NCBI GenBank assembly: GCA_964447385.1 | Contig: CAYUSV010000002.1 | Location: forward strand, 1-52,695 | DNA length: 52,695 bases | Reading direction: 5' to 3' | DNA from: an uncultured Campylobacterales bacterium | GTDB lineage: Bacteria; Campylobacterota; Campylobacteria; Campylobacterales; QNZT01 | Part shown: piece by piece, positions 6,621-27,655 of the stretch | Layout of the letters: each line of letters opens with the position of its first letter | How positions within the stretch are numbered: position 1 is the first letter of the stretch | Position numbers and translations under genes: made by a program | Notes under the pieces: generated by a model | What the model saw: the letters and a program-made list of their open reading frames with translations, nothing else | What the model was told of the DNA's origin: nothing | Databases searched by the model: none

Positions 6621-7034
6621 TTATCTCAATATAAAGCTCACACCGCCAATTATAAACATCAATACAATATCACCAATATATTTCTTTTTTATCCAAGCTC
6701 TAAGTAATTGAGTAGAGGTAGAATCATTTGTATTTGTATTTACTCTCAATATATGTTTTTTAACACTTGTGTAGATCATTATCAAAACAGCGATAATCAT
6801 AAGTATCAAAGAGGATTTAAGATCAAAATGGTTTACTGCCATGACGGTAATACCGGTAAAGATAATAGCCACAACAAGTAGAAGGTATTGAGGCTGTAGA
6901 TATTTCATCCGATTGATATAAATAACCTCATCTTTGAGATTTAAACTTACATAGATATTGTAAAGTGCAAGTAAGATAGTGGCACCTATGATGAAAAGGT
7001 GAAAATTTATTGACATAGTTATCATTTGTTCCAT
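6621..7034 (-). CDS. small integral membrane protein, unknown function
   Basis: 137 aa with four hydrophobic segments. Abuts rsmE. Confidence 0.5.
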   Translation of the reverse strand: MEQMITMSINFHLFIIGATILLALYNIYVSLNLKDEVIYINRMKYLQPQYLLLVVAIIFTGITVMAVNHFDLKSSLILMIIAVLIMIYTSVKKHILRVNTNTNDSTSTQLLRAWIKKKYIGDIVLMFIIGGVSFILR

Positions 7035-7084
7035 GGTTTCTCCGATATATAGATAGGCGACATTCTAGCAAAAGTTCTTGAAAA

Positions 7085-7100
7085 TGGCATAGAGTGTGCT
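7085..7100 (+). promoter_or_regulatory. candidate sigma-54 promoter (TGGCAT-N5-GTGCT)
   Basis: GG (7086-7087) and GC (7098-7099) are separated by exactly 10 nt, as in the -24/-12 consensus TGGCAC-N5-TTGC. Lies 42 nt upstream of the ATG at 7143. AGGAAA RBS at ~7131. Confidence 0.45.
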
Positions 7101-7142
7101 TTTAAATTAAGGACACCTTAAATAAATGTTAGGAAACTTCTT

Positions 7143-9143
7143 ATGAAAAAACACCATTTAATCAATTTTTTAATTTTGCTATACATATTTTCAGCAAATG
7201 CATATGCATGGAAAGTTGAAAAAAGCTCTGTAGTACAATTAAAACTTACAAATAACGGAGACTTAGGTATCGGCACAGAAACTCCCGCAGCTAAACTAGA
7301 AGTACAAGGAAATATCAAAATAGTTGATGGAAATCAAAGCGATGGGTATGTTTTGACTTCAGATGCAAATGGATTAGCAACTTGGAAAAGCTCATCAGGA
7401 GGTGGTGCATCATCGATTAATGATTTGAGTGATGGAAAAACAATGTCCACTTCTATGTTTTTAGGAACTAATGCTGGTGTAGATACTAATAATACTGGTA
7501 TATACAATATTGGTATCGGTACAGAGTCTTTGTATAGCAACACGGACGGAACAAATAATATTGCAGTAGGATACCGTTCGTTAAAATTTAATACAAGAGG
7601 AGAATACAATACAGCGCTAGGAGGACGAAGCTTATATAGTAATATATCTGGAATGTATAGTGTTGCGTTAGGTCATAAAGCACTTTTTTCAAATACAACA
7701 GGAAATCAAAATGTTGCTATTGGGGTTAATTCCATGGCTACTTCAACTACAGGAGGAAATAATACAGCAATTGGATATCAAGCTTTAAATAAAAATCTAA
7801 CAGGAAGTAATAATACAGCAATTGGACATAGAGCACTCTACAACAATACAGAAAGTTACAATACGGCAACTGGATTTCGTGCTTTGTATAGTAATACTAT
7901 AGGAACTCATAATGTTGCGATGGGATATTCTGCCTTATCTAAAAACACAGAAGGAAACAATGGTACAGCAGTTGGTTATCAAGCTCTTAATCGTAACACA
8001 ACTGGAAATAATAACACAGCAACTGGACTTGAATCTTTAGGATATAATACAATAGGGAGTAATAACACTGCAATGGGAAACCAAGCTCTTAGGGATAATA
8101 CAACAGGAGACAATAACACTGCAATAGGAAATCAAACTCTTAGGTCTAATACAATTGGTATTAATAATGTAGCAACAGGATATCAAACTCTTAGATCCAA
8201 TACGATAGGTAGCTATAATACAACAGGTGGGTATAGAGCTATGTATAATAATATAGATGGCAATAAAAGTACCGCTGTAGGATATCAAGCTCTATATAGC
8301 AATACAAGCGGTAACAATAATAGTGCAAATGGATATGGGGCATTACAAAATAATACAACAGGTAATGATAACACTGCTACTGGATATTATGCCTTACTCA
8401 CCAATGAAACAGGAAGCTCAAATACGGCAACTGGATATGGAGCACTGCAAAATAATACTGATAGTAGTAATACCGCAATTGGATATAAGACACTACATAA
8501 TAATACAAGTGGTGGAGATAACACAGCAATTGGTCTTAAGACACTATTTTTAAATGAAACAGGAAATTTTAATACTGCAATTGGTCACTCAGCTGGTTAC
8601 AAATCTACCGGTGATGGAAATGTGTTTATTGGTTATAGAGCCGGTTATAATGAAACAGGTTCAGATAAACTATTTATAGACAATACAGATACAGTAGATC
8701 CTCTGATATGGGGAGATTTTAGTAATAATTGGTTAAGTGTAAATGGAGATTTGACAGTAACGGGTCCTTTAAATGTAAATGACAATGTAACAATAGATGG
8801 GGATTTAACTGTAAATGGTAATATCACTGCAACTGGCACAATTACCCCTTCTGATCGTCGCTTAAAAAAAGAGATTCAGACAATTGATAAAGCAGTAGAT
8901 AAAATTAACAGACTTCGAGGTGTTAGTTTTAAATATAAAAAAGATGATCGTCCAAGTATTGGTTTGATTGCACAAGAAGTTGAAGAGGTTTTCCCTGAGC
9001 TTGTGAGTGAAAATAAGAATGGATATAAAGGAGTGCAGTACCAAAACTTAGTTGGTGTGCTTATAGAGGCAGTAAAAGAGCAAAATAGAGAACTAAAAAG
9101 TTTAAAAGCTCAAATTGTAGAGTTAAAAAATAGTATAAAATGA
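7143..9143 (+). CDS. secreted tail-fibre-like repeat protein with C-terminal intramolecular-chaperone (peptidase S74-type) autoprocessing domain
   Basis: Signal peptide (..FSANA/YA). GIGTETPAAKLEVQG N-terminal motif. 23 x 17-aa NTAIGYxALxxNTxGxx repeats. C-terminal ..SDRRLKKEI..L.GVSFKYK....IGLIAQEVEEVFPELV....GVQYQNLVGVLIEAVKEQ + coiled coil. Its stop overlaps the next start (ATGA at 9140). Confidence 0.8.
   Translation: MKKHHLINFLILLYIFSANAYAWKVEKSSVVQLKLTNNGDLGIGTETPAAKLEVQGNIKIVDGNQSDGYVLTSDANGLATWKSSSGGGASSINDLSDGKTMSTSMFLGTNAGVDTNNTGIYNIGIGTESLYSNTDGTNNIAVGYRSLKFNTRGEYNTALGGRSLYSNISGMYSVALGHKALFSNTTGNQNVAIGVNSMATSTTGGNNTAIGYQALNKNLTGSNNTAIGHRALYNNTESYNTATGFRALYSNTIGTHNVAMGYSALSKNTEGNNGTAVGYQALNRNTTGNNNTATGLESLGYNTIGSNNTAMGNQALRDNTTGDNNTAIGNQTLRSNTIGINNVATGYQTLRSNTIGSYNTTGGYRAMYNNIDGNKSTAVGYQALYSNTSGNNNSANGYGALQNNTTGNDNTATGYYALLTNETGSSNTATGYGALQNNTDSSNTAIGYKTLHNNTSGGDNTAIGLKTLFLNETGNFNTAIGHSAGYKSTGDGNVFIGYRAGYNETGSDKLFIDNTDTVDPLIWGDFSNNWLSVNGDLTVTGPLNVNDNVTIDGDLTVNGNITATGTITPSDRRLKKEIQTIDKAVDKINRLRGVSFKYKKDDRPSIGLIAQEVEEVFPELVSENKNGYKGVQYQNLVGVLIEAVKEQNRELKSLKAQIVELKNSIK
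7503..8663 (+). repeat. 23 tandem degenerate 51-nt (17-codon; four units 48 nt) coding repeats
   Basis: Counted unit by unit in the translation (residues 121-507). Neighbouring units such as 8050-8200 are visibly similar at the DNA level. Confidence 0.85.
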
Positions 9144-11029
9144 AAAAGTTTGTTTTTATTATGGCATTTTTTCCTCTTTTGCTAAGTGCTAGATGTATAA
9201 GTAGTTATAGTGAAGATTTTACTCAAATCTGTGAAGAACATGTTGTAGTAGCAGAGGCACATGAAGCTGCTTGTTGTATTCAGCTTGGTTTAAATGCAGT
9301 AAATAGAAGTGGTGGTTGTTATAACTGGGACAACAATATCACAACAAAAACGGCCAACAAAAGCTTTGATTTAACAATTTTGGCAAATGATACCCTCTCT
9401 TCTTCACCCTTAAAGGATACAAATATAACCAAACTTGAGCTTTTAAGCTTTAGTGATGCTTTATGTACGACACAATATGCAACTGAAACTATCTGGAATG
9501 ATAGTGGAAAATCAGATATACAAGGGTGTTTTGAGCCAACAACTGCTTTTACACACACAAAAGCAATAAAATGTGCAAAAATAAGAGTATATGCTACACA
9601 TGATGATAATGATTTTAATGCTACTTCATCTGATACTTTTTCCATAAAACCTGATAGATTTGAGTTTATCATTTCACAAAGTGGAAAACTAATAGCTCAA
9701 AGAAATTACACAGTAGGTGTTAAAGCACTAGAATATGCAAACAGTAATGAGGTAGAGGATTATAACATTACTATTTTACCGGCTTCTAACAAGTATTTTA
9801 GAAATGGTAGTGATGGCTTGGCGATGGCTGGGAGTTTTGTACCAAGTACTAGTTTTGCTTTTGCAAATGGAGTGGTAGCAAATACAACTCTTAGTTTTGA
9901 CAATGTTGGTATCATTGGACTAGAGTTAAATGATACAACATGGAGTGAAGTTGATAGTGATGATACGCCTTTAGTAAAAAGAAGAATTTATCTTGAAGAG
10001 AATTTATCTTTTATACCAGATAGATTTGATATAAATTTTACTTTAACTCCAACGATGAAAAATTATGACAATAAAACATTTACCTATTATGCTGATGACA
10101 CTGTTAATATGGGGGCAAATTTAAAAAACCTTACCCACACCATTACCGCACTTGGAAAAGATGGAGCTATCATGACAAATTATCAAAATCCACAAACTAC
10201 ATATTTTGCAAATGATATAGATTTTCTACTAAATTTAAATATAGATCAAAATCCAACTCTTTTACCAGATATAAATGAAAATGTAACAAAAGATTTAAAC
10301 TTTACAGGAGGAGTTGCGACATTAACATACAGTGGTGTAAAATTTAATTTTGGCAGGGAAAAAAATGTAAGTAAAAATCCGCTCTTAGTAGATGGAACAA
10401 ATAGTGACATAAACATAACAACAACGGATAGTATTGATAGTGGTGTAAAAGGAGATATTCTACAAACTTTTGAAAACAATGCAACCTTTTATTATGGCAA
10501 AATACAAACCAAAGATATAAAAACAGCGATCTCTCCAACTACTGAGAGTTTAATTACTGAAGTCTATTGGGATGGTAGTGGTAGCAGAGTCTTTCCTTCT
10601 ACATTTGTGCAAAATACGACCTCTTGGTATACAAATGTAGATGACGATACAATTTCCACTTTAATAGATGGAGATTTCACTCCAATGAATAAGAGAAAGA
10701 TCGAAACTCCTCTCTTAGGTGTAACCATCAGCGTAGATTCACCAAATCCAACCAATGGAGAGATCGGTTATACTATCACAAAATCAGATACTACTAAGAC
10801 TCAAAAAGTTTATTATCATGTAGATATACCTATTTGGTTATGGTATAGCAGATATGAGGATTATAACTTTAGTACAGATAGTACTTGTGCTTCACATCCA
10901 TGTTTTGAGTATATTTTTGAGGCAGAAGATACGACTTCTGGTATTAAAAGTGGAAATTTTAAAGGTAGTAAATTTGATAATAATTTTGACTCGAAAATAG
11001 AGAAAAAGGCGATAAAGTTGATGAGGTAA
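9140..11029 (+). CDS. large secreted Cys- and sequon-rich protein, unknown function (positional candidate for pilus-associated adhesin, MshQ/PilY1-like role)
   Basis: 629 aa. N-terminal signal-like MKKFVFIMAFFPLLLSA. 12 D/E-x-N-x-S/T sequons by manual count. Translationally coupled to the fibre gene. No motif recognised. Confidence 0.6.
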   Translation: MKKFVFIMAFFPLLLSARCISSYSEDFTQICEEHVVVAEAHEAACCIQLGLNAVNRSGGCYNWDNNITTKTANKSFDLTILANDTLSSSPLKDTNITKLELLSFSDALCTTQYATETIWNDSGKSDIQGCFEPTTAFTHTKAIKCAKIRVYATHDDNDFNATSSDTFSIKPDRFEFIISQSGKLIAQRNYTVGVKALEYANSNEVEDYNITILPASNKYFRNGSDGLAMAGSFVPSTSFAFANGVVANTTLSFDNVGIIGLELNDTTWSEVDSDDTPLVKRRIYLEENLSFIPDRFDINFTLTPTMKNYDNKTFTYYADDTVNMGANLKNLTHTITALGKDGAIMTNYQNPQTTYFANDIDFLLNLNIDQNPTLLPDINENVTKDLNFTGGVATLTYSGVKFNFGREKNVSKNPLLVDGTNSDINITTTDSIDSGVKGDILQTFENNATFYYGKIQTKDIKTAISPTTESLITEVYWDGSGSRVFPSTFVQNTTSWYTNVDDDTISTLIDGDFTPMNKRKIETPLLGVTISVDSPNPTNGEIGYTITKSDTTKTQKVYYHVDIPIWLWYSRYEDYNFSTDSTCASHPCFEYIFEAEDTTSGIKSGNFKGSKFDNNFDSKIEKKAIKLMR

Positions 11030-11070: not shown

Positions 11071-11712
11071 ATGAGAGCTGGATTTAACTTAATTGAACTT
11101 ATTTTTACTATTGTTATTATGGCTGGTATATTTGTGGTTATTCCAAAGATTATTTTTGCTACAAACAAAAGTGATACCTTTGCCCTAAAACAGGAGGCAT
11201 TTTTTAACGCTATCTCACTTACCAATATCGCCTCTTTTCTTGCATGGGATGAAAATAGTACTCAAACTTTGTCTATTTTAGCAACTTCTGATGATATGAT
11301 AGCTTGTGATAAGAGTACATTTTTACGCTCTGGTGGATTTTTAAGCTCATATGGCAGAAATTGTGAAGAAGACTTTAATGCCTCAACAATTGGCTCAGAT
11401 GGGGAAAGCGATTATCTACTATTTAATGATATAGATGACTTTGATGGTGAGAGTATTGATGTAAATCTTAGCACAAAAACAAAATATAAAATTTTTACAC
11501 AAGTGCGTTATTTAGATGATAATATTTTTAGTGTTAGTGGTAATAAAATGACAATTGCACTTGACAACTCTTCTCGCATAGCAACATCAAATATTAAAAA
11601 ATTTAAAGCAACTGTTAGTTATGCAGGAAAAAGAGGGGATAAAAACATCTCCTCTTTTTCCTACTATTCAACCAATATCGGGCAAATCACATTAAATAGT
11701 GAGCCATGGTAA
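11071..11712 (+). CDS. minor prepilin-like protein
   Basis: N-terminus MRAG/FNLIELIFTIVIMAGI: G/F cleavage site, Glu at +5, hydrophobic helix. 213 aa. Confidence 0.75.
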   Translation: MRAGFNLIELIFTIVIMAGIFVVIPKIIFATNKSDTFALKQEAFFNAISLTNIASFLAWDENSTQTLSILATSDDMIACDKSTFLRSGGFLSSYGRNCEEDFNASTIGSDGESDYLLFNDIDDFDGESIDVNLSTKTKYKIFTQVRYLDDNIFSVSGNKMTIALDNSSRIATSNIKKFKATVSYAGKRGDKNISSFSYYSTNIGQITLNSEPW

Positions 11713-12611
11713 TGAGAAAAGCTTTTACTATGGTAGAGCTTATCACAACGATTGTGATCATGGGGATTTTAGCAGGAGGTACATATATATCTTTGGCAAA
11801 TCTTTATACAAAAAGTGCAAAATCAAAAGCAATAAGTGAATTATCGTTTGATTCAATTCTAATTTCAAATCAAATTTCAGCACTTCTCTTTCACAGAGTT
11901 CCATCTACGGTTATCGGCTATGATGCCCAAACTGGAAATTTTGAGTCGATCTATAGCATGGGCGCTAATTACACAATTTTTGAGTGGATTGCAACGGATT
12001 TTGAAGAGTATAAAGCAAAAAAATATAGTAGTTTTGTGGATTTTGAGAAATCAGACAAAAATACAAATTTACTCTACTCGCCAGATACAAATATATCTAC
12101 TGTTAGTAGTGATGCATTGGTATTTGCAGGCTCTTTTGATGAGGGTGGTGTAGTTTATGGCAGTGATTTTAATGACTCTTTTGGTTGGCATGGAAATAGT
12201 AGTGATAAGATATATGATATCAACAGTAGTTCCAGTGATAATGAAATAAGACTAACAGATAAACCCTCAAAAATTTATGAAAAATATTATCTACTAAAAG
12301 GTGCTTTTGCTCTTGCAAGATATGCAGATATCAATCAAAGTGCAAATTGTTTAAGTGATCTAAATATCACTTTAGGAGATGATACGCTTCTTTTGTTTTA
12401 TGATTACTATCCATACAAAGGCAAAACTTTTTGTGCAGATACTAGCGGAGATATAAATGGCAGTGTTACTCTTCTTTCAAACGAAGTTCAAGGTTTTGAG
12501 TTAGATTTCGTTAATGGTAATTTACAGTTTAATTTAACTCTAAAAAGAGAGGTACGAAAAAGAGGTAAAAATTTAACTATTCAAATTTCAAAACAGAAGG
12601 TGATATTTTGA
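11712..12611 (+). CDS. minor prepilin-like protein
   Basis: MRKA/FTMVELITTIVIMGILAGG class III signal. Preferred ATG at 11712 overlaps the upstream TAA (TAATG). The track start at 11706 adds MV. Confidence 0.75.
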   Translation: MRKAFTMVELITTIVIMGILAGGTYISLANLYTKSAKSKAISELSFDSILISNQISALLFHRVPSTVIGYDAQTGNFESIYSMGANYTIFEWIATDFEEYKAKKYSSFVDFEKSDKNTNLLYSPDTNISTVSSDALVFAGSFDEGGVVYGSDFNDSFGWHGNSSDKIYDINSSSSDNEIRLTDKPSKIYEKYYLLKGAFALARYADINQSANCLSDLNITLGDDTLLLFYDYYPYKGKTFCADTSGDINGSVTLLSNEVQGFELDFVNGNLQFNLTLKREVRKRGKNLTIQISKQKVIF

Positions 12612-13021
12612 TGCGAAGTGGTTTTGGGATGATTCAGGTTATATTTTTTATGCTTATTTTATCTGGTATTTTAGCAATCTCTATGAGATATGCCTCAATC
12701 ACTACCAAGCAGACACAAGATTTATATATCAAAGAACAAGCTTCTCTTTTTATGCAAAGTGCAATTGAGTTGGCACTGCTTGGAATTAGTTCACATGATT
12801 ATAACTCTAGTGGATTTATTGAAGATATAGAGGTTATATCTGATGATAAAAGGTTTATTGCAGACATCAATATCACTACCTACTATATATATGGTGTAAA
12901 TATTGATACAGAAGTATCTAGTGGAATGATAAACTTAGATATTGTGGTTGAAACAAACAATACTCACCCCAAAAATAGTAGAAAGATTAGAATTACAAAG
13001 AGGAGTTTACAAAAATTATGA
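12611..13021 (+). CDS. minor prepilin-like protein lacking Glu+5 (GspK/PilX-like feature)
   Basis: MRSG/FGMIQVIFFMLILSGI has Gln instead of Glu at +5. ATG 12611 overlaps the upstream TGA (TGATG). The track start at 12608 is TTG. Confidence 0.7.
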   Translation: MRSGFGMIQVIFFMLILSGILAISMRYASITTKQTQDLYIKEQASLFMQSAIELALLGISSHDYNSSGFIEDIEVISDDKRFIADINITTYYIYGVNIDTEVSSGMINLDIVVETNNTHPKNSRKIRITKRSLQKL

Positions 13022-13473
13022 AAAGTGCATTTTCTATGATAGAACTTATCTTTATAATAGTTATTATAGGTATTTTGGGTGCAACGATGCAGATGAATAT
13101 GCCTGATAATAGACTCTTTAGTGATATAAACTTTATCACTCAAAAAATAAAATCAAAACAGATTTATGCACTCTCTTATGATAATTTTGATTATGAAAAT
13201 AGTCAATTTATTGATAACTCTACATGTATTACAATAAGTAGAGATTTTTTAAATGAAGATGAGAGAAACAGTTCAAAAGCAAATCCTTACCAAATTAGCT
13301 CTTATACTACTCTATCTATAAGTGATGAAAATCTCTGTTTTGATAATTTAGGAAGAGTCTATAAATTAAATAATTTACTAAAATTGCCGATAGAGTTAAA
13401 TATAACCTATAAGAATAAAACAAAAACAGTAAATATCATGCCACTAAGTGGCAGTGTTGTAGTAAAGAAGTAA
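13018..13473 (+). CDS. minor prepilin-like protein
   Basis: MKSA/FSMIELIFIIVIIGILGA class III signal. ATGA overlap with the upstream ORF. Confidence 0.75.
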   Translation: MKSAFSMIELIFIIVIIGILGATMQMNMPDNRLFSDINFITQKIKSKQIYALSYDNFDYENSQFIDNSTCITISRDFLNEDERNSSKANPYQISSYTTLSISDENLCFDNLGRVYKLNNLLKLPIELNITYKNKTKTVNIMPLSGSVVVKK

Positions 13474-13476
13474 GAG

Positions 13477-14964
13477 ATGCCAAAAATTATCAACTATATC
13501 AATTTGCAAAATAGCCAAACTTTCTCTTTTGATAAATTAGTTAATGATAAGGCAAGTTTTAAAAATAGAAAAACTCCAGTAGGGGCAAGGTTTCTTTATG
13601 GCGATATAATTTCACATAGTTTTAAAATAGCAGATAACCTCTCAAAACAAGAATTACTTGTCAAGATAGAGCTTAAAATGTATGAAGATATAGGATTGGA
13701 TCCGACAAAAACATACCAAATTTCCTATATTCAAAAAGAGGTAGCGTTAAATAGTGAAATTCTTTTGGAAGCTTTTGCAGTTGATAAAGATGCAGTTAGC
13801 AACAAGTACCAAAATTATGTTAAAAAGAGTAAATATATAGATTTTATCGCTATTCCTTTTTTAGTATTTCAAACGCTATACACAAACAAAACTTTAGAAC
13901 CTAAAAATGACATATTTATCTATATCTCATATGATGAAGCGTTTACCACCTCCTATAAAGACGGTAACTATATATCTTCTAAAAGAATTAAAACTATTGA
14001 TGATATGGTACACGATCTTGGTAGCAGAAATATCACTATCAGTAGTGAAGAGCTTTATGAAATTATCACGACAAAAGGACTTAAAAAAAGTAGTTATGAA
14101 CTTTTACAATATGAGCTATATGAGTATCTAGTAGAGACATTTGAAACTCTATTTTCAAAGATAAAAAACTTAAGTCTACACAACAGAAATGTTTATAGTT
14201 TTACCCAGATTGATAGAGTCTTTTTTACTTGTAATCAAAAAAATGTGCCACATCTGCAAGAGCAGGTACAAAGTTATGTAGAAAATGCAGAATTTAAAAC
14301 GCTAAATTTTTTACAAACAAAAACAGTTAATGTATTGGATGCAATTAGTTCATCATATATCAAAGATAAGTTATCACAAAATGATCATGATCATAATGTT
14401 ACCCTCTTTAAGCCAAAAGCACCTTTTTATAAAAGCGAAGTTGGAAAGTTTACTTTTGCAACAGTCGCTTCGGCGCTTATTTTATCAATTTATCCTATAT
14501 ATTTACAGCTTGAAATATCTTCAAAAAAACAGGAAAATGAGATACTTATAGATAAAGAATTACAGATTAGTAAAACCTCAAAAAAGTTTCAACTTAAATT
14601 AAAAAAGATTAAAACCCAAATTTCCCAGTATAATCAAAAAAAAGAGATAGATCAAAAAAAACTACAGAACCTTCAATCTATTGCGAATTCTCTTCTTTTG
14701 CTTAAATCAAAAGATACAAAATATACAGATATGATTTTAAAGATCAATAAAATTCTAGGTAGATACCATCTCAGTATCGATAAAATTACCCAAACTGATA
14801 CTCATGCACTGAATTTAGAGTTATCATCAAAAAAAGATAAACGAGATACAATAGCTCTTTTTATGAAAGATCTTTTAAACAATGGTTTTAGCTCTGCTAT
14901 ATCTTCAGAAATAACTCTAAAAGATGATGATATTTATAAAAGTATCGTTACGGTAAAGAGGTAA
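13477..14964 (+). CDS. MshI-like pilus assembly protein (PilM-like cytoplasmic part + TM + coiled coil)
   Basis: 495 aa. One TM (FTFATVASALILSIYPIYL) followed by a K/Q-rich coiled coil. First position of the I-J-K-L-M-N-E-G order. Confidence 0.5.
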   Translation: MPKIINYINLQNSQTFSFDKLVNDKASFKNRKTPVGARFLYGDIISHSFKIADNLSKQELLVKIELKMYEDIGLDPTKTYQISYIQKEVALNSEILLEAFAVDKDAVSNKYQNYVKKSKYIDFIAIPFLVFQTLYTNKTLEPKNDIFIYISYDEAFTTSYKDGNYISSKRIKTIDDMVHDLGSRNITISSEELYEIITTKGLKKSSYELLQYELYEYLVETFETLFSKIKNLSLHNRNVYSFTQIDRVFFTCNQKNVPHLQEQVQSYVENAEFKTLNFLQTKTVNVLDAISSSYIKDKLSQNDHDHNVTLFKPKAPFYKSEVGKFTFATVASALILSIYPIYLQLEISSKKQENEILIDKELQISKTSKKFQLKLKKIKTQISQYNQKKEIDQKKLQNLQSIANSLLLLKSKDTKYTDMILKINKILGRYHLSIDKITQTDTHALNLELSSKKDKRDTIALFMKDLLNNGFSSAISSEITLKDDDIYKSIVTVKR

Positions 14965-14969
14965 ATTAG

Positions 14970-15596
14970 ATGACAACAGTAGAAAAATTTGAAAATTATC
15001 TAAAAAAGGTGAAACCAGCACAAAAAATTTTAATATTTTTAATGCCTTTGATTTTTTTTGGTGGAATTTTTTTTATGATGATTTTACCTATGCAAGAAGA
15101 AGATATAGAGATGCTCAATGCCCAAAATAGCAAACTTTATGCCAACATAAAAAGAAAATCATCAAAAACAGTGAAAAAAAAGATACAAAAATCCAAAAAA
15201 GAACTTTTAGATCTTAAAGAGAAGGTTCAAAAAGATCATGATTCACTCAGCTTTTTATATGCTAAACTTACTAATCTGGAAATTTTAGAGTTTAGCCAAG
15301 CGCAGTGGGCTGCAACGCTTGATGATATTTTGAAAAAATCTTTGAGTTTAAATATCAAAATTAAATATATCAAAAATAGTGACTCAGAAACTAAAAAAGT
15401 ACAAGAGAAAATTGTACCTAAAAAGTATGTTGAAATTAGAGGAAGTGCAAAATTTAGCGATGCATTAGAGTATCTGAATTTTATAGAAAATAGACAATTT
15501 TTAGTAGATATCAAAAATATTCAGATGAATAGAAGTGAAAATTTGCAAGATATTGACTTTGTTATCAATTTTACCATTTATGGAGTAAATATATGA
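14970..15596 (+). CDS. MshJ/PilO-like bitopic assembly protein
   Basis: 208 aa. N-terminal TM (ILIFLMPLIFFGGIFFMMIL), coiled coil, C-terminal globular part. AAGAGG RBS. Confidence 0.5.
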   Translation: MTTVEKFENYLKKVKPAQKILIFLMPLIFFGGIFFMMILPMQEEDIEMLNAQNSKLYANIKRKSSKTVKKKIQKSKKELLDLKEKVQKDHDSLSFLYAKLTNLEILEFSQAQWAATLDDILKKSLSLNIKIKYIKNSDSETKKVQEKIVPKKYVEIRGSAKFSDALEYLNFIENRQFLVDIKNIQMNRSENLQDIDFVINFTIYGVNI

Positions 15597-16024
15597 AAAT
15601 TTTTATACTTTTTAGTTTAACTCTCTCTTTTCTTTTTTGTGATGCTAAACTTATTGCAAATATTGATAAAACTTTTCAAGAGGTTATAAATCAAAGCAGA
15701 GCCAAAAAAGTCAATGATATTAAGGTTGATTATGATCCATTTAATATAAAAACATCAAAACCAACAACCAAAAATGTAGCGAAACTCAACAACCAAAAAC
15801 AATCAAAACCTAAAAATAGTTCAAAAAAACCAGTTTTAAGTATGATTTTGAATAAAAAAGCTTTTATAAATGGTAAATGGTATAAAGAAGGTGGAAAATT
15901 TGCCGATTATGCGATAAGAGAAATAAATCAAGATATTGTAATTTTGGAAAAAAATAGTAAATATTCCACATTAAAACTTCCATTGACAGATACCGTCTTG
16001 ATAATACATCAGGAGATAGAGTGA
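15593..16024 (+). CDS. MshK/PilP-like small secreted protein
   Basis: 143 aa. Signal peptide, K-rich linker, C-terminal ..AFINGKWYKEGGKFADYAIREINQDIVILE.. ATGA overlap upstream, GTGA overlap downstream. Confidence 0.45.
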   Translation: MKIFILFSLTLSFLFCDAKLIANIDKTFQEVINQSRAKKVNDIKVDYDPFNIKTSKPTTKNVAKLNNQKQSKPKNSSKKPVLSMILNKKAFINGKWYKEGGKFADYAIREINQDIVILEKNSKYSTLKLPLTDTVLIIHQEIE

Positions 16025-17406
16025 AGATATTTGTAGCTATTGTTGTTCTATTTATGAGTATCAGTTTACACGCAACATGTCAAAGTAAATTTTTCTCATT
16101 TAAAGTCAATAGCACAAAAAGCGCTCCAGGGACAATCTTAAATGTCTTAGAGAGTCTCTCAAGTGAGTGTAAAATGAGTATTATATTTAAAGATGATACA
16201 GCGAGAGAGATGACAGAAAAAAAGATCAGTTATCTTAGTGTTAATGATTTTACACTTGAAGAGATTTTAGATCTGCTTTTGAGTGAAAACAATCTTTTTT
16301 ATACATTAAGCGATAGAAATGTCTTAAAGATATCATATTTACAGACTAAAACATTTTTTATAGATTATGTAAGCTTCACTGATCGAAGTAGTACTTCAAA
16401 CAGAACTATTCAAACAGGTTCAAATGATGGTGGTGATGGTTCAACCTCTTTAAACTCTACTAGCTCATTTAGACTCTGGGATGAGATAGAAAATGAGATG
16501 AAAACTATTTTAAACAGAGATGGAGACACTTATAGCTCTGAAAATACAATCATAAATCAAGATGCAGGTTTAGTCACTGTAACTGGAACCAAAAGACAAA
16601 TTGATCGTATGCAAAAGTATATTGATATTCTTATGGATAGATTGCATAAGCAGATTTTAATAGATGCGAAGGTTATCGAAGTCACATATGCGCAGGATCA
16701 GACAATAGGTATTGATTGGAGTAAATTTGAAGCTACTTTAAATGGTACAGCAGATGGATCAAAGGGGACAGGGATTATAAACACTCTTAGTGATCCGACA
16801 TATCTCTCAAAATACAATTTTACAATTGCAGGTCTTATAGATTTTTTAAAAACTCAAGGAGATGTAGATATCGTCTCAAATCCAAAAATACTCACACTAA
16901 ATAACCAACCTGCTATCATAAATGTTGGTGAAGAGAAAAATTATAAATATACAACAGGTGTTACAACAACAGCAACAACAGCAGGCACAGTACAAGTACC
17001 ACAGTTTGAAGTTGGTTCAACTTTTGTAGGAGTTACGCTCTCAATTGTACCTGAAGTCACTAAAGATGATTTCATTATTTTAAAAATAAATCCATCAATT
17101 AGTGAAATATCAAAACAACATGTAGATGAAAACGGTGTTCCAAACTTAGCTCCTGATATAAAAATCAAACAACTCTCTTCAGTAGTAAAAGTAAAAAATA
17201 ATAAAAAAATATTACTAGGAGGACTAATTCAGAGAAAAAGTCAAGAAAACATTACAAAAATCCCAGGTTTGAGTGCTATACCTATTTTGGGAAATGTTTT
17301 TAGGAGTAAAAAAACAGTTAATACTAAGAGTGAATTGATTATAGTTATAACGCCAAAACTTATTCGAGGTGATGAGAATGAACCTACCTTGGAGGATTTG
17401 GACTAA
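16021..17406 (+). CDS. mshL: secretin (MshL/PilQ/GspD family)
   Basis: Secretin C-domain motifs NNQPAIINVGEE, IPGLSAIPILGNVFRSKK, SELIIVITPKLI. Signal peptide present. GTG start. Confidence 0.85.
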   Translation: MKIFVAIVVLFMSISLHATCQSKFFSFKVNSTKSAPGTILNVLESLSSECKMSIIFKDDTAREMTEKKISYLSVNDFTLEEILDLLLSENNLFYTLSDRNVLKISYLQTKTFFIDYVSFTDRSSTSNRTIQTGSNDGGDGSTSLNSTSSFRLWDEIENEMKTILNRDGDTYSSENTIINQDAGLVTVTGTKRQIDRMQKYIDILMDRLHKQILIDAKVIEVTYAQDQTIGIDWSKFEATLNGTADGSKGTGIINTLSDPTYLSKYNFTIAGLIDFLKTQGDVDIVSNPKILTLNNQPAIINVGEEKNYKYTTGVTTTATTAGTVQVPQFEVGSTFVGVTLSIVPEVTKDDFIILKINPSISEISKQHVDENGVPNLAPDIKIKQLSSVVKVKNNKKILLGGLIQRKSQENITKIPGLSAIPILGNVFRSKKTVNTKSELIIVITPKLIRGDENEPTLEDLD

Positions 17407-17445
17407 ATAAGTAATGTTCCTATTACTTAACCTTAAAGAGGAAAC

Positions 17446-18252
17446 ATGAATCAATACGCTAGAGCAAAAGATCTATTTAACGATGATTTTGATTTAAGTG
17501 GGTATTTTGACTCTTTGACCTTCGAGTATGCAAAAAAGAGTTTAGTCGATGCTATCACTGCACATGACACACCTTTAGTGTTTGTTTTGGGTAGTCCAGG
17601 AAGTGGAAAAAGTTTTTTGTTAAATTATATCACCCAAAAAGTTAAAGATGTCAGGGTAGCGAAGTATTTTACCCATCCATACTTTGATGATAAAGAGTTT
17701 TTGGAGATTCTCTTATCTCTTGCAGGTAAAAACATCGGACGAAACGAATTTACAACCGAAGCGTTAATTTCACAACTGAGAAGAAGCTTTAGCAATCTTG
17801 AATATACGATTTTTATCGATGAAGCACAACTTTTAACAGAAGAGCAAATAGAGCTTATTAGAATTTTAAGTGACCAGAAAATCTTTCAATTTGTTTTAGC
17901 TATGCATGAAAAAGAGGGAAGATATATCTTACAAAAGGATCATTTTAAATCTCGCACAAATAGGGTAGTAAAAATCGAACAACTCCAAGATCATGAAGTA
18001 ACCAGATATATAGAACACCGCCTAATCTCAAACAATCTATCAGAACTAGCATCTGAGTTTAAAAAAAGACACATCCAATACATAAGTCAATATGCAAAAA
18101 GGAACTTTCGAACAACCAAAAAATTAGTCCGAACTCTTTTTGAAATTATGAATATCGCGCACAAAGAAAATCTCTCTAGCAAATATACAAAAGTGAGTGA
18201 AAGAACATTAACTATGGCAGCTATAGATACAGGACTTTTAGATGTTAAATAA
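17446..18252 (+). CDS. mshM: ExeA/MshM-type AAA ATPase
   Basis: Walker A GSPGSGKSF, Walker B IFIDEAQ. 268 aa. Sits directly after the secretin, as in msh operons. Confidence 0.75.
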   Translation: MNQYARAKDLFNDDFDLSGYFDSLTFEYAKKSLVDAITAHDTPLVFVLGSPGSGKSFLLNYITQKVKDVRVAKYFTHPYFDDKEFLEILLSLAGKNIGRNEFTTEALISQLRRSFSNLEYTIFIDEAQLLTEEQIELIRILSDQKIFQFVLAMHEKEGRYILQKDHFKSRTNRVVKIEQLQDHEVTRYIEHRLISNNLSELASEFKKRHIQYISQYAKRNFRTTKKLVRTLFEIMNIAHKENLSSKYTKVSERTLTMAAIDTGLLDVK

Positions 18253-18922
18253 TAATTTTAATGAACTTGTCAAAAAATATGAAAAATATAGAGGTAAAAG
18301 AAGAGATAAAATGCTTCTTAGTACATTGCTTGTTTTAGCGATATTAGCTGGTGGTTATTATTTGGTAACAAATAGCGGTTTTATCACACAAAGTTTCAAA
18401 AAAACTACACCAGAGTCACAAAAGAGTGGAACTATTGTAGATACTCAAATAGCTGATGAAACAACAGAAGATAACCCGGTACAAGAGATTAAAACACACA
18501 AAGAAGAGAAAGCTGAAAAACCACTCCAAAGAGTTAAGGTAGATACACCAAAAACTGAAGAGTTGCCAAATAAAGTCTATGATCGTACCACTAAAAAAAT
18601 AGAAAATACAAATCCATTTCAACTAAAAGTCAAGGAGAGAAAAAACCTATATAAACTCTTAACAGATGATAAAAAACAAAATAGTTATCAATCTGCTATA
18701 AGTGTGGCTCAGTTTTATTTTGAAGAAAAAAATTATGATCAGACAATTATCTGGTCTGTAAAAGCAAGTAAAAAAGATCCTAGAGAGAGTCTTCCGTGGA
18801 TTTTATATGCAAAATCAAAAGCTACACAGGGTAAAACAAAAGTTGCAAAAAAAGCACTCGCTATCTATTTAAAACATACCGACTCAAAAAAGGTACAAGA
18901 TTTGCTAGATACTTTGAAATAG
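18242..18922 (+). CDS. MshN-like bitopic protein (TM + C-terminal TPR-like helices)
   Basis: 226 aa. TM LLSTLLVLAILAGGYYLV, charged linker, C-terminal helical repeat (..AISVAQFYFEEKNYDQTIIWSVKA..). 11-nt overlap with mshM. Confidence 0.45.
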   Translation: MLNNNFNELVKKYEKYRGKRRDKMLLSTLLVLAILAGGYYLVTNSGFITQSFKKTTPESQKSGTIVDTQIADETTEDNPVQEIKTHKEEKAEKPLQRVKVDTPKTEELPNKVYDRTTKKIENTNPFQLKVKERKNLYKLLTDDKKQNSYQSAISVAQFYFEEKNYDQTIIWSVKASKKDPRESLPWILYAKSKATQGKTKVAKKALAIYLKHTDSKKVQDLLDTLK

Positions 18923-18959
18923 GATCATTTTAAACTAAATGATCCTCAAATTTTGAGGT
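18921..18959 (+). promoter_or_regulatory. two overlapping hairpins between the mshN-like ORF and mshE; the second pairs with the mshE Shine-Dalgarno
   Basis: AGGATCATTT(18921-30)/AAATGATCCT(18937-46) form a 10-bp stem. CCTCAAAATTTTGAGG (18944-59) is a perfect 16-nt palindrome. Its GAGG is the RBS 9 nt before the ATG at 18969. Confidence 0.5.
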
Positions 18960-18968
18960 AATTTAGAT

Positions 18969-20633
18969 ATGCGAAAAACGGTACGAATTGGTGATATCCT
19001 TATAGAAGAGGGAAAAATCACCCAAGAACAACTCATGCATGCTCTCAGCGTTCAAAAGGGGAGTAACTTTTCAAAAAAACTTGGTGAAATTTTTGTCGAT
19101 GAAGGGCTTATCAGTGAAAAAGAGTTTGCTCAGGTTTTAGCTAGTCAACTTGATTTTGAGTTTATTGATCTTTATGGTACCAATATTAATTTTAACACCT
19201 TAAAAAACTTTTCACTAAATATGCTTAAAAGCGCAGATGCTCTTGTGATAAAAGAGGATGAAGATTTTATCCATATAGCAATCTCTGATCCTTTGAATTA
19301 TGATCATATGGAGTTGTTGGAGCGAAATATAGTCATAAAACCTATAAGATACTATATCTCTTTAAAATCAGATATCAAACATGTATATGAGAGATTTGAG
19401 ATCATAGAGACTACACAATCATTGATGCAAAAAGTAAAAAATGAGATAAATTCTAAAGAGTTTAAATTAGACAATGAACAGAGTTCTATCATGCAGCTTA
19501 TTGAGCAGATTATCAAAAGTGCTGTAAGAAATGGTGCTAGTGATATTCATATAGAGCCAAACAACAAAGATGTCTCTGTTAGAAATAGAGTTGATGGAGT
19601 TTTAAGAGAAGTTTTTATCTTGGATATCGATATATACAATGCACTAGCTTCTCGTATCAAAATTTTGGGAAATCTTGATATTTCTGAAAAAAGAAGATCA
19701 CAAGATGGAAGATTTTCACTAGAAGTTAATGGCAATATATATGATTTTAGGCTCTCAACAGCACCTACACTTCACGGAGAGTCAATTGTACTTCGAATTT
19801 TGGATCAGCAAAAGGTTCTTTTAAAACTTGATAAATTAGGCATGAGTGAGACAAACTTAAAAAAATTTCAAGCACTACTTGATACTCCATATGGTGTTGT
19901 TTTTGTAACAGGACCCACAGGAAGTGGTAAAACAACCACACTTTATGCTGCACTAAACGAGATAAAAAGTATCGAAAATAAGATAATCACTATCGAAGAC
20001 CCTATTGAGTATCAACTGCCACTTGTGCAACAAATACAAACAAATGAGAAGATAAATTATACATTTAACCATGTTTTAAAATCAGTCCTGAGACAAGATC
20101 CAGATATAATCATGGTAGGTGAGATAAGAGACGATGAAACTCTAAATACAGCAGTTGGTGCCTCTTTAACGGGTCACTTGGTATTTTCAACTCTACACAC
20201 CAATGATGCGCCGAGTGCTATTACAAGATTGGTTCAAATGGGATTACAATCATATCTTATTGCTGATTCTCTTATTGGGATTGTAACTCAAAGATTGGTT
20301 AGAGAAATTTGTCAAAGTTGCAAAGAGTCACATAAACCTCAAAATACTCTTATTGAAAAAGTTAAAAAATATCTACCTGAGTCTTATATGTTTTATCACG
20401 GTAAAGGGTGTACAAAATGTAGTTTTAGTGGTTATCGTGGAAGAGTTATGATTTGTGAGATATTGCAGATAAACGATACGATATCTAGTCAAATCTCTGA
20501 AGAGAAAAACAGACATGAGATCTATAAAGAGGCGCTTAAAGGTGGATATGAACCTATGCTCATAGATGGTCTTAAAAAAGCACTACAATCAACAACATCT
20601 TTAGAAGAGGTGCTTAGAGTTGTTAAAATATGA
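18969..20633 (+). CDS. mshE: GspE/PilB-family assembly ATPase with MshE-type N-terminal domain
   Basis: Walker A GPTGSGKTT, Asp/His boxes, tetracysteine CQSC...CTKC. N-terminus carries two tandem RLGxxhhxxGhhxxxxLxxxLxxQ-like motifs. Confidence 0.9.
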   Translation: MRKTVRIGDILIEEGKITQEQLMHALSVQKGSNFSKKLGEIFVDEGLISEKEFAQVLASQLDFEFIDLYGTNINFNTLKNFSLNMLKSADALVIKEDEDFIHIAISDPLNYDHMELLERNIVIKPIRYYISLKSDIKHVYERFEIIETTQSLMQKVKNEINSKEFKLDNEQSSIMQLIEQIIKSAVRNGASDIHIEPNNKDVSVRNRVDGVLREVFILDIDIYNALASRIKILGNLDISEKRRSQDGRFSLEVNGNIYDFRLSTAPTLHGESIVLRILDQQKVLLKLDKLGMSETNLKKFQALLDTPYGVVFVTGPTGSGKTTTLYAALNEIKSIENKIITIEDPIEYQLPLVQQIQTNEKINYTFNHVLKSVLRQDPDIIMVGEIRDDETLNTAVGASLTGHLVFSTLHTNDAPSAITRLVQMGLQSYLIADSLIGIVTQRLVREICQSCKESHKPQNTLIEKVKKYLPESYMFYHGKGCTKCSFSGYRGRVMICEILQINDTISSQISEEKNRHEIYKEALKGGYEPMLIDGLKKALQSTTSLEEVLRVVKI

Positions 20634-21876: not shown

Positions 21877-22515
21877 TTATGTACATGTTATACTAAATGC
21901 CATACCAAGGTCAGAGCTAGAAAAATCAACAGAGTTGGTAGTATTAACATCAATGAGCATAAAATCACCACTTATAATTTGTCTCTTCTTGCTTAAGGAG
22001 CTTTCAACATAACATTTATTTGTAGAGTTTGTATCTACCATATAAAGCCAAAAGTCATTTTTATCAGGTTTTCCCTCTATGTCTCTTGAGTTATTTGTTG
22101 AACTAAATTTAACTCCAACAGTAGGATCAGAAGCTTTAGCTGTATAAATTCTGTAGATATTTGTACTATTATTTTCAAACTGCTTTTTAAAACCACTTTT
22201 GCCAGAAGTTTTTATCAATGCTCCTATATCGTCACCGTTTCGTGATAGATTATAAGGATAACCACTAGATGCTAAATCTGTCTCTATATCATCATCTACA
22301 CCATCATTGTTCCAATCAAAATCATCATCATTTACACTCCAAGTCCCATGAATTGACTCTAACGCTGCCGTAATAGCTGCTACGCTTGAGAGTTCTGTGG
22401 ATCTTTTTGCTTGATCTTTGATATTGGTAAATTTTGGTATAGCTACAGAAGATAGTATACCGATAATCACAATTACAAATATAAGCTCAACCATAGTAAA
22501 AGCATTTCGCTTCAT
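21877..22515 (-). CDS. type IV pilin (major-pilin candidate 1)
   Basis: MKRNA/FTMVELIFVIVIIGILSSVAIPKF class III signal. 212 aa. Two C-terminal Cys (..NKCYV.., ..SITCT) could form a D-region disulfide. AAGGAA RBS. Confidence 0.85.
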   Translation of the reverse strand: MKRNAFTMVELIFVIVIIGILSSVAIPKFTNIKDQAKRSTELSSVAAITAALESIHGTWSVNDDDFDWNNDGVDDDIETDLASSGYPYNLSRNGDDIGALIKTSGKSGFKKQFENNSTNIYRIYTAKASDPTVGVKFSSTNNSRDIEGKPDKNDFWLYMVDTNSTNKCYVESSLSKKRQIISGDFMLIDVNTTNSVDFSSSDLGMAFSITCT

Positions 22516-23350: not shown

Positions 23351-23351
23351 A

Positions 23352-27636: not shown

Positions 27637-27655
27637 TGGCTATAGGAGATTTATT

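Follow-up and report, generated by a model that had tools for sequence, protein, structure and literature searches.

Gene organization of the fibre locus

The stretch of DNA analysed here, referred to below as the window, covers 52,695 nt of contig CAYUSV010000002.1 from an uncultured Campylobacterales bacterium. It contains a gene for a large repeat protein, the fibre, followed by genes related to those of type IV pili:

7035..7142, + strand, divergent intergenic region 5' of the fibre gene, presumed operon promoter region
7143..9143, + strand, fibre precursor ORF, 666 aa, ATG start
9140..11029, + strand, MshQ-like putative pilus-tip adhesin, 629 aa (precomputed PF28247 DUF6701_3rd)
11071..13473, + strand, four small genes (213, 301, 137 and 151 aa), presumed to encode minor pilins that belong to the tip complex
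13477..16024, + strand, three genes (495, 208 and 143 aa) located where MshI/J/K alignment-complex genes would be expected
16021..21871, + strand, block of five genes, secretin through T2SSF, as follows
16021-17406, + strand, secretin
17446-18252, + strand, AAA_22 MshM-like protein
18242-18922, + strand, TPR MshN-like protein
18969-20633, + strand, MshE ATPase (T2SSE and MshEN domains)
20630-21871, + strand, T2SSF platform protein

The operon is of the MSHA type, with secretin, AAA_22, TPR, MshE and T2SSF genes in that order, together with prepilin-like and MshQ-like genes. As the first-pass annotation of this DNA had reported, the fibre gene comes first, with the secretin gene downstream, and its stop codon overlaps the start of the MshQ-like gene (ATGA at 9140-9143). 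A Shine-Dalgarno-like AGGA is present at 7131-7134, 8 nt before the fibre ATG. Scans for promoters (29 found for 25.2 expected) and for terminators (3 found for 1.5 expected) did not exceed chance, and neither element was therefore assigned. No Rfam match was found in the whole window. Among the products of the small genes, a prepilin N-methylation motif is present in those of 213 and 301 aa, and the one of 137 aa is weakly similar to the 213-aa pilin. The 495-, 208- and 143-aa proteins gave no significant match in a Pfam search; their genes are conserved across all related loci.

Domain structure of the fibre protein

The fibre protein can be divided into the following segments:

7143..7208, + strand, Sec-type signal peptide, aa 1-22, predicted cleavage AYA/W (by inspection)
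7209..7274, + strand, near-invariant mature N-terminal module WKVEKSSVVQLKLTNNGDLGIG, aa 23-44
7260..7385, + strand, GIGTxxPxxxLxV…VLTSDAxGxxxW unit, aa 40-81 (phmmer)
7506..8663, + strand, shaft of 23 x 17-residue NTAIGYxALxxNTxGxx repeats, aa 122-507 (repeats in register over aa 122-510)
8664..8849, + strand, pre-cleavage stalk, aa 508-569, with short-period DLTVNG-type repeats
8850..9140, + strand, Peptidase_S74 intramolecular chaperone/autoprocessing domain, aa 570-666, 97 residues
8850-8852, + strand, Ser570 codon, first residue of the S74 domain
8865-8867, + strand, Lys575 codon, dyad partner of Ser570
9039-9140, + strand, predicted C-terminal helix, residues 633-665

The C-terminal part is a genuine intramolecular-chaperone domain of the S74 type and has the SDxxxK dyad. 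An autoprocessing domain had been suspected there, and the HMM search identified PF13884 at aa 570-621 (E 9.4e-19, 67.9 bits for a cut-off of 22). The motif is intact (S570-D-R-R-L-K575), and both S570 and K575 are invariant among 30 homologues as well as in the 8 members of the subfamily described below. At the sequence level the domain matches the solved structures 6f45 (E 5e-10), where SDRRLKKEI of the fibre aligns with SDRRIKKDI, 7dc3 and 8jov, and the C-terminus of the fibre also matches over 20 tail-fibre families in PHROG. The AF2 monomer model has pLDDT values of 73-89 across aa 570-666, and a Foldseek comparison matched this domain to the MyRF ICA domain (7dc3, E 5.6e-4, TM 0.63). By analogy with characterised S74 proteins, the domain would cleave itself off at Ser570 in a trimerisation-dependent manner.

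S74 is the sole Pfam match of the fibre and NCBIfam gave none, so that the protein carries neither an autotransporter barrel nor a T9SS tail, in agreement with the earlier description. We thus rejected its assignment to the trimeric autotransporter adhesins, as the C-terminal YadA-type beta-barrel anchor is absent in both Pfam and NCBIfam searches. A T9SS substrate is likewise ruled out, there being no C-terminal sorting domain and the host not belonging to the Bacteroidota. No literature was found on PF26696/PTL_trimer.

At the other end of the protein, MKKHHLINFLILLYIFSANAYA/WKVEK shows on inspection the n/h/c layout of a Sec-type signal peptide, with a helix predicted at residues 2-24, and the alignment reveals an identical layout in every subfamily member. 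The Sec signal peptide and the motif GIGTETPAAKLEVQG (aa 42-56) noted in the first-pass annotation were thus both recovered. In the mature N-terminal module, W23, K24, V25, Q32, K34, L35, T36, G39 and G44 are invariant among the 8 subfamily sequences, which are 27-34% identical outside the module. This subfamily corresponds to seven clusters, with a sharp score drop beyond them; the WKVEK…KLT motif was present in none of the other 250 proteins retrieved and was not found in viral contigs. We consider the module (aa 23-44) a candidate docking or export signal. The GIGT-containing unit that begins within it recurs in many homologues of the larger family, and phmmer detected multiple copies in P0105, P0115, P0114 and others. 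In the AF2 monomer model, residues 23-113 have pLDDT values below 50.

The shaft repeats could be laid out in register, giving 23 units as counted previously, of which two are 16-mers and the last is degenerate. Self-identity of the fibre is 0.40 at an offset of 17 residues, 0.34 at 34 and 0.31 at 51, most other offsets giving about 0.03-0.13. The monomer model places strands every 17 residues with pLDDT values of 80-92, and the shaft is accordingly predicted to be a regular beta-solenoid. In BFVD it matches 'FhaB-like adhesion protein'/chlorovirus glyco-repeat proteins (E 6e-23), and it also matches PHROG tail spike and virion structural families. For the shaft, Foldseek matched nothing in the PDB significantly; the hits were weak ones to right-handed beta-helices, with TM near 0.1, and the fold class is therefore based on the monomer model and the BFVD matches. 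At the DNA level the repeats are 75-78% alike; a tandem-repeat search gave only a weakly similar central triplet, and recent repeat expansion was rejected on this basis. The stalk that follows has an 18-nt periodicity at 8733-8818, low pLDDT in the monomer model, and aligns with the region preceding the S74 serine in 6f45 and 7dc3. In the mature fibre, this short, putatively beta-helical stalk would become the distal tip.

The MshQ-like neighbour and its Cys/His leader

The protein encoded immediately downstream of the fibre (P0121 in our set) comprises four parts:

9140-9190, + strand, signal peptide
9191-9277, + strand, Cys/His leader RCISSYSEDFTQICEEHVVVAEAHEAACC, about 29-30 aa (leader HMM)
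9278-10927, + strand, Ig-like beta-sandwich body (model and Foldseek)
10928-11026, + strand, conserved C-terminal tail …KKAIKLMR

Alignment to the long forms of this protein indicates that both LamG lectin domains have been lost from the window copy. No NCBIfam family was found for it. The leader is not that of a lipoprotein, as no lipobox precedes the first Cys (SAR/C, AKA/AC). For MshQ, a role as a tip protein of the PilC/PilY1 kind, docking through its C-terminus, has been proposed (PMC13533445). The segments of the fibre and of the MshQ-like protein that we propose below to interact have pLDDT values below 50 in both AF2 monomer models.

Co-occurrence of the fibre gene and the leader

In six related Campylobacterales lineages (the window, L010, L058/59, L060, L062 and L063/64), an MshQ-like gene is preceded, at a distance of -4 to +11 nt, by an S74 gene whose mature product has the near-invariant WKVEK…KLT N-terminus. 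Among the 25 related operons with a visible head, the leader HMM detected the Cys/His leader in all six S74 carriers and in none of the 19 non-carriers, with no discordant case. The expectation that the fibre gene would accompany msh clusters thus held in part: six lineages share the arrangement, 19 of the 25 operons lack the gene, and three family members inspected elsewhere do not lie next to pilus genes. The modules that follow the leader vary (LamG, DUF285/PKD-like or none), but the leader itself persists. In L062, the pair formed by the S74 gene and the leader-protein gene is followed by an xseA-like gene and not by pilus genes.

The S74 gene and the leader are two separate differences that always change together, the mshQ signal-peptide coding region between them being kept. 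The retention of this intervening region rules out one deletion as the source of the S74-less, leader-less state. Four of the six carrier lineages were found by a search with the S74 protein itself, which introduces an ascertainment bias into the count. The six lineages are also related to one another, and a single recombination cassette (the S74 gene plus the 5' end of mshQ) could yield the co-occurrence without physical interaction. The constant association with this special tag on the putative adhesin suggests that the pilus may carry the fibre or export it.

A cellular family with phage relatives

The fibre belongs to a family of 7938 proteins (E<1e-10), mostly from Bacteroidota, cellular and signal-peptide-bearing. 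One protein that has the N-terminal module, P0144, is encoded in a non-pilus setting, and its 6-kb contig carries no gene with the leader. By tblastn, the fibre matched 1511 phage records, the best being tail fibres of roseophages and pelagiphages at 35-37% identity. We searched for phage genes near the fibre gene and found none, the neighbours being rsmE, rpmE and rsmI on one side and the pilus operon on the other. This chromosomal synteny (rsmI-rpmE-rsmE next to the operon) is conserved in relatives, and the GC and GC3 of the fibre gene resemble those of the pilus operon. The fibre is a cellular protein and not the product of a prophage gene. As for the suggestion that a phage receptor-binding module was recruited to the pilus system, the S74 domain it was built on is present, but a phage source is only one possibility for so large a cellular family with 35-37% identity to phage proteins.

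Proposed mechanism and alternative explanations

We give roughly even weight to the view that the protein is a cellular, trimeric adhesin fibre resembling the MAT fibres of Bdellovibrio and acting as an accessory of the pilus-tip adhesin. The precursor would be exported by the Sec system and its signal peptide removed at AYA/W. In the periplasm, the S74 domain would nucleate trimerisation of the stalk and the 23-turn shaft, then cut itself off via Ser570 and Lys575, to give two products: the mature chain, of about 57 kDa, and a released fragment of about 11 kDa. The near-invariant N-terminus may then hand the mature fibre to the MSHA-like pilus. Docking would probably occur on the co-translated MshQ-like protein, at the Cys/His leader that forms its distal, N-terminal end, or alternatively on the minor-pilin tip complex. 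Pilus extension through the secretin could finally carry the fibre out for distal display as an adhesin. The docking and display steps are inferred from the gene coupling, the co-occurrence pattern and the analogy with TcpF/TcpB. Loss of LamG from the MshQ-like protein together with gain of a long shaft by the fibre is consistent with the fibre having assumed an adhesin role; it is no simple substitute for lectin domains, however, since L010 and L060 have the S74 gene together with a full LamG MshQ. A more specific version of this proposal is possible, though we hold it only tentatively: the WKVEK…KLT N-terminus and the MshQ Cys/His leader would form a two-part coupler that plugs an S74-chaperoned trimeric fibre onto the pilus tip, creating a modular 'fibre-on-pilus' adhesin. 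Docking of a trimer onto a monomeric leader raises a problem of stoichiometry.

The same observations have to be weighed against a fibre that shares only its promoter with the operon, is exported or anchored at the surface or in the periplasm by another route, and makes no contact with MshQ or the pilus. Such independence would fit with the 19 operons that work without the fibre gene, with the L062 pair not being followed by pilus genes, and with most of the family members examined, which are far from pilus genes. Bdellovibrio MAT fibres moreover reach the surface with no known pilus requirement (PMC10769870). We consider it less likely than the pilus-tip accessory. Against it stand the perfect association of the leader with the S74 gene, the persistence of the leader as downstream modules change, the tight spacing of the two genes in all six lineages, and the constant co-variation of an S74 gene and a 30-aa leader separated by the mshQ signal-peptide region.

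A fibre shed into the medium as a pilus exoprotein, in the manner of TcpF or CofJ and with its N-terminus serving as export signal, appears improbable to us. The protein is indeed operon-encoded and Sec-exported, its conserved mature N-terminus is poorly ordered in the model, and TcpF and CofJ offer a precedent, one in which a trimer is formed and the signal is lost by proteolysis. However, this is an MSHA-like and not a type IVb system and has no trimeric minor pilin of the TcpB/CofB type, no sequence similarity to TcpF or CofJ is seen, and a conserved base with a variable shaft fits an anchored adhesin, as in MAT and phage fibres, better than a soluble factor. A phage tail-fibre gene stranded by chance beside the operon is highly improbable. 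The PHROG tail-fibre and tail-spike matches, those in BFVD and the 1511 phage records (best identity 35-37%) would be expected from it, but the surroundings are housekeeping genes and a pilus operon without further phage genes, and six lineages carry such a gene at this very position, in a chromosomal neighbourhood whose synteny is conserved. The signal peptide, the native base composition, the absence of the N-terminal module from viral contigs and the old, diverged repeats also argue against a prophage remnant.

Significance and comparison with known systems

Secreted S74 fibres are abundant in bacteria, where we found thousands, mostly annotated as 'tail fiber domain-containing protein'. 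The kind is already known, with the Bdellovibrio MAT fibres as characterised precedent; these are Sec-exported and surface-located, with demonstrated S74 self-cleavage (PMC10769870). What is new is the translational coupling of an S74 fibre gene to an MshQ-like gene, with matching lineage-specific N-terminal elements gained or lost together. The MAT paper (PMC10769870) explicitly leaves open how such fibres cross the outer membrane and are anchored, and likewise what the conserved MAT N-domain binds, type IV pili being mentioned as a possibility. Beyond this passing remark, we found no literature joining S74 proteins with type IV pili. If the two-part coupler is correct, it would be the first identified export and anchoring route for cellular S74 fibres, and the first MSHA/T4a-type pilus with a separately encoded trimeric cargo. 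A physical link would represent a new form of pilus-adhesin diversification, in which a phage-like fibre is swapped for built-in lectin domains. It would also extend pilus-mediated cargo display beyond type IVb and provide an entry point for attachment studies in uncultured Campylobacterales.

Among known systems, the fibre resembles the S74 subgroup of the MATs (mosaic adhesive trimeric fibres) of Bdellovibrio bacteriovorus, for example Bd3182, as described in PMC10769870. Both are cellular proteins and presumed surface adhesins with a signal peptide, a conserved N-terminal region, a long beta-helical trimeric shaft (predicted in our case) and a C-terminal S74 domain with SDxxxK. The sequence GIGTETPAAKL (aa 42-52), of the GxGxxxPxxxL type, resembles the MAT capping-loop V-G-G/N-small-x-x-P-x-x-x-L but is offset by one residue. 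MATs share a beta-rich N-domain of about 130 aa. The subfamily of the present fibre has a conserved 22-residue N-terminal module of its own, and the shaft is made of a 17-residue 'chlorovirus glyco/FhaB-like' repeat. The fibre gene is single-copy in the window and translationally coupled to a putative tip-adhesin gene, an arrangement not found for MATs in the passages of PMC10769870 consulted.

Phage fibres with a chaperone domain (K1F endosialidase, T5 pb1, S16 long tail fibre 6f45) have in common with it the S74 domain and a pre-cleavage beta-helical stalk, and those of roseophages, pelagiphages and cyanophages share the repeat shaft at 34-37% identity. Phage fibres fold in the cytoplasm, in contrast to the present protein, which has a signal peptide and a chromosomal, non-phage setting; its lineage-specific N-terminal module takes the place of the virion-attachment domain. 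The best solved structural match, the ICA domain of eukaryotic MyRF, shares the SDxRxK site, but MyRF is a membrane-bound transcription factor whose biological setting is unrelated. Asn/Gly-rich repeats of the 'NTAIG' type recall the YadA-type heads of trimeric autotransporter adhesins, a name given by JGI to some homologues, a few of which carry PF05658. The repeat period of YadA heads is 14 residues, as opposed to 17 here, and with no C-terminal beta-barrel anchor the fibre presumably trimerises via S74.

The downstream protein resembles the MshQ/PilC/PilY1 tip adhesins (PMC13533445) in its DUF6701_3rd domain, its conserved C-terminal tail, the adjacent minor-pilin genes and its variable N-terminal modules, which are lectin-like in relatives. 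It differs from MshQ in having no LamG, in its Cys/His leader and in the fibre gene ahead of it; the mshQ-like gene also precedes the pilin genes, whereas mshQ follows mshDOP in Vibrio. In secretion dependent on type IV pili, exoproteins bind the minor pilin at the tip through their mature N-terminus; TcpF forms a trimer (PMC9565799, PMC10120004). Like TcpF with TcpB in V. cholerae and CofJ with CofB in ETEC, the fibre is encoded in a pilus operon, exported by Sec and has a conserved mature N-terminus (PMC9565799, PMC10120004, PMC6048534). It would further resemble them as a trimeric cargo, predicted in the present case, for which passage across the secretin at the tip of the pilus is proposed. 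TcpF and CofJ belong to type IVb systems, where a trimeric minor pilin serves as receptor; for the fibre, the pilus is MSHA-like and the leader of the MshQ-like protein is the candidate receptor. TcpF is released, whereas the fibre is more likely to be retained.

An S74 fibre encoded at the head of a pilus operon

The S74 (intramolecular chaperone, autoprocessing) assignment of the fibre and its tie to a pilus operon, both proposed in the first-pass annotation, hold and are strengthened by our analysis. The key new observation is that, in six lineages, an S74 gene co-occurs with a Cys/His-rich leader on the protein encoded downstream.

Features of the fibre locus in the window
6621-7034, -, 137-aa multi-pass membrane protein, no Pfam match, divergent from the operon head
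7143..9143, +, fibre ORF, 666 aa, ATG start, AGGA 8 nt upstream
9191-9277, +, leader RCISSYSEDFTQICEEHVVVAEAHEAACC in the N-terminal part of the MshQ-like protein
21877-22515, -, 212-aa prepilin-like gene with an N_methyl motif, convergent to the operon end, directly after the T2SSF gene
22640-27551, -, cluster of DsbD_2, two NosL-like, ABC ATPase and FtsX-type permease genes
27602-30191, +, response regulator and histidine kinase, after the DsbD_2/NosL cluster

The fibre starts with MKKHHLINFLILLYIFSANAYA followed by WKVEK, the layout of a Sec signal peptide by inspection, with a helix predicted at residues 2-24. The sequence repeats unmistakably every 17 residues: shifts of 17, 34 and 51 give self-identities of 0.40, 0.34 and 0.31, versus ~0.03-0.13 at most other offsets, and an in-register layout from aa 122 gives 23 repeats. 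In a monomer model, this repeat shaft forms a regular solenoid (pLDDT 80-92). The C-terminal 97 residues, starting at nt 8850, match Pfam Peptidase_S74 (E 9.4e-19) and the solved S74 domains 6f45 (E 5e-10), 7dc3 and 8jov, and their AF2 model matches the MyRF ICA domain (Foldseek E 5.6e-4, TM 0.63). The catalytic dyad is intact, with Ser570 and Lys575 (SDRRLK) invariant in 30 homologues. Neither Pfam nor NCBIfam detected a barrel anchor or sorting domain. The signal peptide, the 23 repeats, the autoprocessing domain and the missing anchor were thus all recovered as first described.

The fibre gene is translationally coupled to the next gene, its stop overlapping the start of the MshQ-like gene (ATGA at 9140). 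Directly downstream lies an MSHA-like type IV pilus operon encoding prepilin-like proteins, a secretin, AAA_22, TPR, T2SSE with MshEN, and T2SSF, so that the overlap and the coupling to a secretin-encoding operon are also borne out. The convergent prepilin-like gene may encode the major pilin or a further pilin. The DsbD_2/NosL/ABC cluster and the two-component genes appear unrelated to the fibre finding.

A variable slot for adhesins at the operon head

The MshQ-like protein (9140-11029, +, 629 aa) carries DUF6701_3rd in the precomputed Pfam annotation of its own entry and of its homologues, which are often 1000-1290 aa long with N-terminal Laminin_G_3 or pentaxin domains, the MshQ architecture. 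From synteny and AlphaFold modelling, MshQ has been proposed as a PilC/PilY1-like tip protein of MSHA pili that docks through its extreme C-terminus onto the minor-pilin complex (PMC13533445). The neighbour of the fibre is thus a putative pilus tip adhesin. Its monomer model shows a body like a string of Ig-like beta-sandwiches and has low confidence at the conserved C-terminal tail (…KKAIKLMR). Aligned to the long forms, it corresponds to a long MshQ minus both LamG domains, which have been lost in this lineage.

Related loci were gathered by context look-ups and by genome and metagenome scans; all are from Campylobacterota, mostly uncultured Campylobacterales MAGs. Synteny is kept, including the 137-aa membrane-protein gene, which holds its position in nearly all of them with the S74 gene present or absent, while the operon head varies and is a variable adhesin slot. 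It holds a fused LamG or pentaxin MshQ, a split LamG ORF (L006), discoidin-like repeats (L007/L008) or an S74 gene. Across Campylobacterota, the MshQ-like protein itself has a hypervariable N-terminal module slot, with one to three LamG/pentaxin domains, discoidin/Sad1_UNC-like repeats, or DUF285/PKD-like modules. The discoidin/Sad1_UNC-like repeats of L007 are interrupted by assembly gaps. L006 encodes the LamG part in an ORF of its own, with a 26-nt overlap with the DUF6701 ORF, which may reflect a split gene or a frameshift.

Comparison loci with the module slot
L006 8020-11863
L007 8395-11755
L009 3580-6714
L060 2337-6203
L062 1978-3075
L063 964-1905

An S74 subfamily and the leader occur together

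Locus L010 encodes a 289-aa S74 protein at the position of the window fibre. A search with this protein gave just seven clusters, after which scores fell sharply to those of generic S74 matches. This subfamily and the window fibre share a signal peptide, a near-invariant mature N-terminus (AYA followed by WKVEKDGTTQMKLTDTGRLWIG) and the S74 domain, but their middles differ, the subfamily being without 17-residue repeats, and overall identity is 27-34%. The 250 other retrieved proteins all lack the extreme N-terminal motif, as do viral contigs. In the short members P0138-P0143 (e.g. L010 9122-9991) the S74 helix is followed by a conserved Cys/His tail, LVCQDHPDADIC, which is of note because the partner protein has a Cys/His leader; the window fibre and P0144 have a longer terminal helix instead.

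The S74 gene lies between rsmE and mshQ for P0143 (Sulfurospirillum MAG, L058) and P0142 (L060). That of P0141 (L062) follows a 144-aa membrane-protein gene, the one flanking this slot in L060, and that of P0140 (L063/64) is directly upstream of a leader-bearing gene on a short contig. Only P0144, the most distant member, is located elsewhere: this 503-aa S74 protein with the shared mature N-terminus WKVEK…KLT (L061 3323-4834) is encoded between malic-enzyme and Fe-S protein genes, with no pilus or leader-bearing gene on its 6-kb contig.

In all six carrier lineages, the S74 stop lies -4, +9, +5, +7, +11 or +5 nt from the next start, and the following protein opens, past its own signal peptide, with a CxSxxSExHxQxCExHxVxxExHxAxCC leader. 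A leader HMM matches only these lineages (E 1e-16 to 1e-20); in other MshQ-like loci it gave no match beyond a faint half-motif in L031 and L053 (E 0.06). There (~971 and ~3525, respectively), what seems to be the opening half of the leader, CDSSLQNPHTQVC, sits on a Sulfurimonas-type MshQ-like protein; no S74 gene can be seen upstream, and the half-motif may be a leftover or a forerunner of the full leader. Behind the leader come LamG (L010, L058, L060), DUF285/PKD-like modules (L062, L063) or, in the window, the DUF6701 body directly; L010 and L060 thus keep LamG domains alongside the fibre gene.

Among distinct loci with a visible operon head, six have both S74 gene and leader, 19 have neither and none is discordant. 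The carriers are a small, related set, of which four came from searching with the S74 protein. As to the check on co-occurrence with msh clusters proposed in the first-pass annotation, an S74 gene adjoins an mshQ-like gene in six lineages, is absent from the 19 other loci and, as P0144, also occurs outside a pilus context. In neighbour-joining trees of RsmE, DUF6701 and secretin, carriers are scattered, each beside a non-carrier sister (window-L015, L010-L006, L060-L009). The S74-gene and leader differences flank an mshQ signal-peptide coding region retained in both states, which rules out one simple deletion as the source of the pattern. Swapping of the whole operon head as one recombination cassette could explain the co-occurrence. 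In L062 (1978-3332), the gene after the S74 gene encodes a 365-aa leader-bearing DUF285 protein, and an xseA-like gene rather than pilus genes comes next; the pair is thus not confined to places where the operon lies directly downstream.

Origin and possible display of the fibre

PHROG profiles of tail fibres, tail spikes and virion structural proteins match the fibre repeats and C-terminus. Among viral proteins, the shaft is closest in structure and sequence to 'FhaB-like adhesion'/chlorovirus glyco-repeat proteins from giant viruses and marine phages (E 6e-23; 41% identity across 465 columns). In phage genomes, tail fibres of roseophage, pelagiphage and Methylophilales phage match the fibre best (35-37% identity over ~80% of the protein). 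Cellular proteins are nevertheless the largest reservoir, with 7938 relatives at E<1e-10, mostly from Bacteroidota, none exceeding about 45% identity; typical ones are 'tail fiber domain-containing proteins' of 800-1150 aa with signal-like N-termini. Three cellular members checked in context had ordinary chromosomal neighbours and no pilus genes beside them. In another organism (L002 10001-18275), genes for a Y_Y_Y-type hybrid histidine kinase and two response regulators lie between two S74 fibre paralogues (639 and 615 aa), which hints that fibre genes of that lineage have their own two-component control.

The viral relatives recall the phage module first suggested, but the fibre is better read as a member of a large cellular and viral family. 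That it is a prophage remnant is barely credible: rsmI, rpmE, rsmE and a small membrane-protein gene lie upstream, the pilus operon downstream and, beyond it, the pilin-like gene, DsbD_2, NosL, ABC/FtsX and two-component genes. Its GC (0.34) and GC3 (0.18) match the operon, and its DNA repeats are diverged, with 75-78% identity in the central triplet only. A released exoprotein seems improbable. A co-expressed but physically independent adhesin is less so, though still unlikely, and we put the chance that the fibre partners the pilus-tip adhesin at about even.

Judging from characterised families, the fibre precursor would be exported by Sec, its S74 domain would nucleate trimerisation in the periplasm, and self-cleavage at Ser570 would release a mature chain of ~57 kDa and a fragment of ~11 kDa. 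Context and analogy suggest that the mature N-terminus may dock on the distal leader of MshQ or on tip pilins; the pilus could then carry the fibre out via the secretin and display it. The fibre and MshQ-like proteins were each modelled as monomers, with low confidence in the segments that might form the interface. That the pilus displays or secretes the fibre is a hypothesis. The main value of the finding is that it opens to direct test the way in which cellular S74 fibres are exported and anchored.

For docking and carriage, the analogy is with TcpF/TcpB and CofJ/CofB, where the mature exoprotein, encoded in the operon, carries its export signal in its N-terminal segment, which hooks onto the tip minor pilin; TcpF is trimeric (PMC9565799, PMC10120004). 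The characterised cellular precedent for a secreted S74 fibre is the set of mosaic adhesive trimeric (MAT) fibres of Bdellovibrio. Of these 21 Sec-exported trimeric fibres, which are located at the cell surface, 13 end in S74 with SDxxxK, and experiments demonstrated self-cleavage; an invariant domain at their N-terminus binds a surface element, and the authors mention a possible interplay with type IV pili (PMC10769870).
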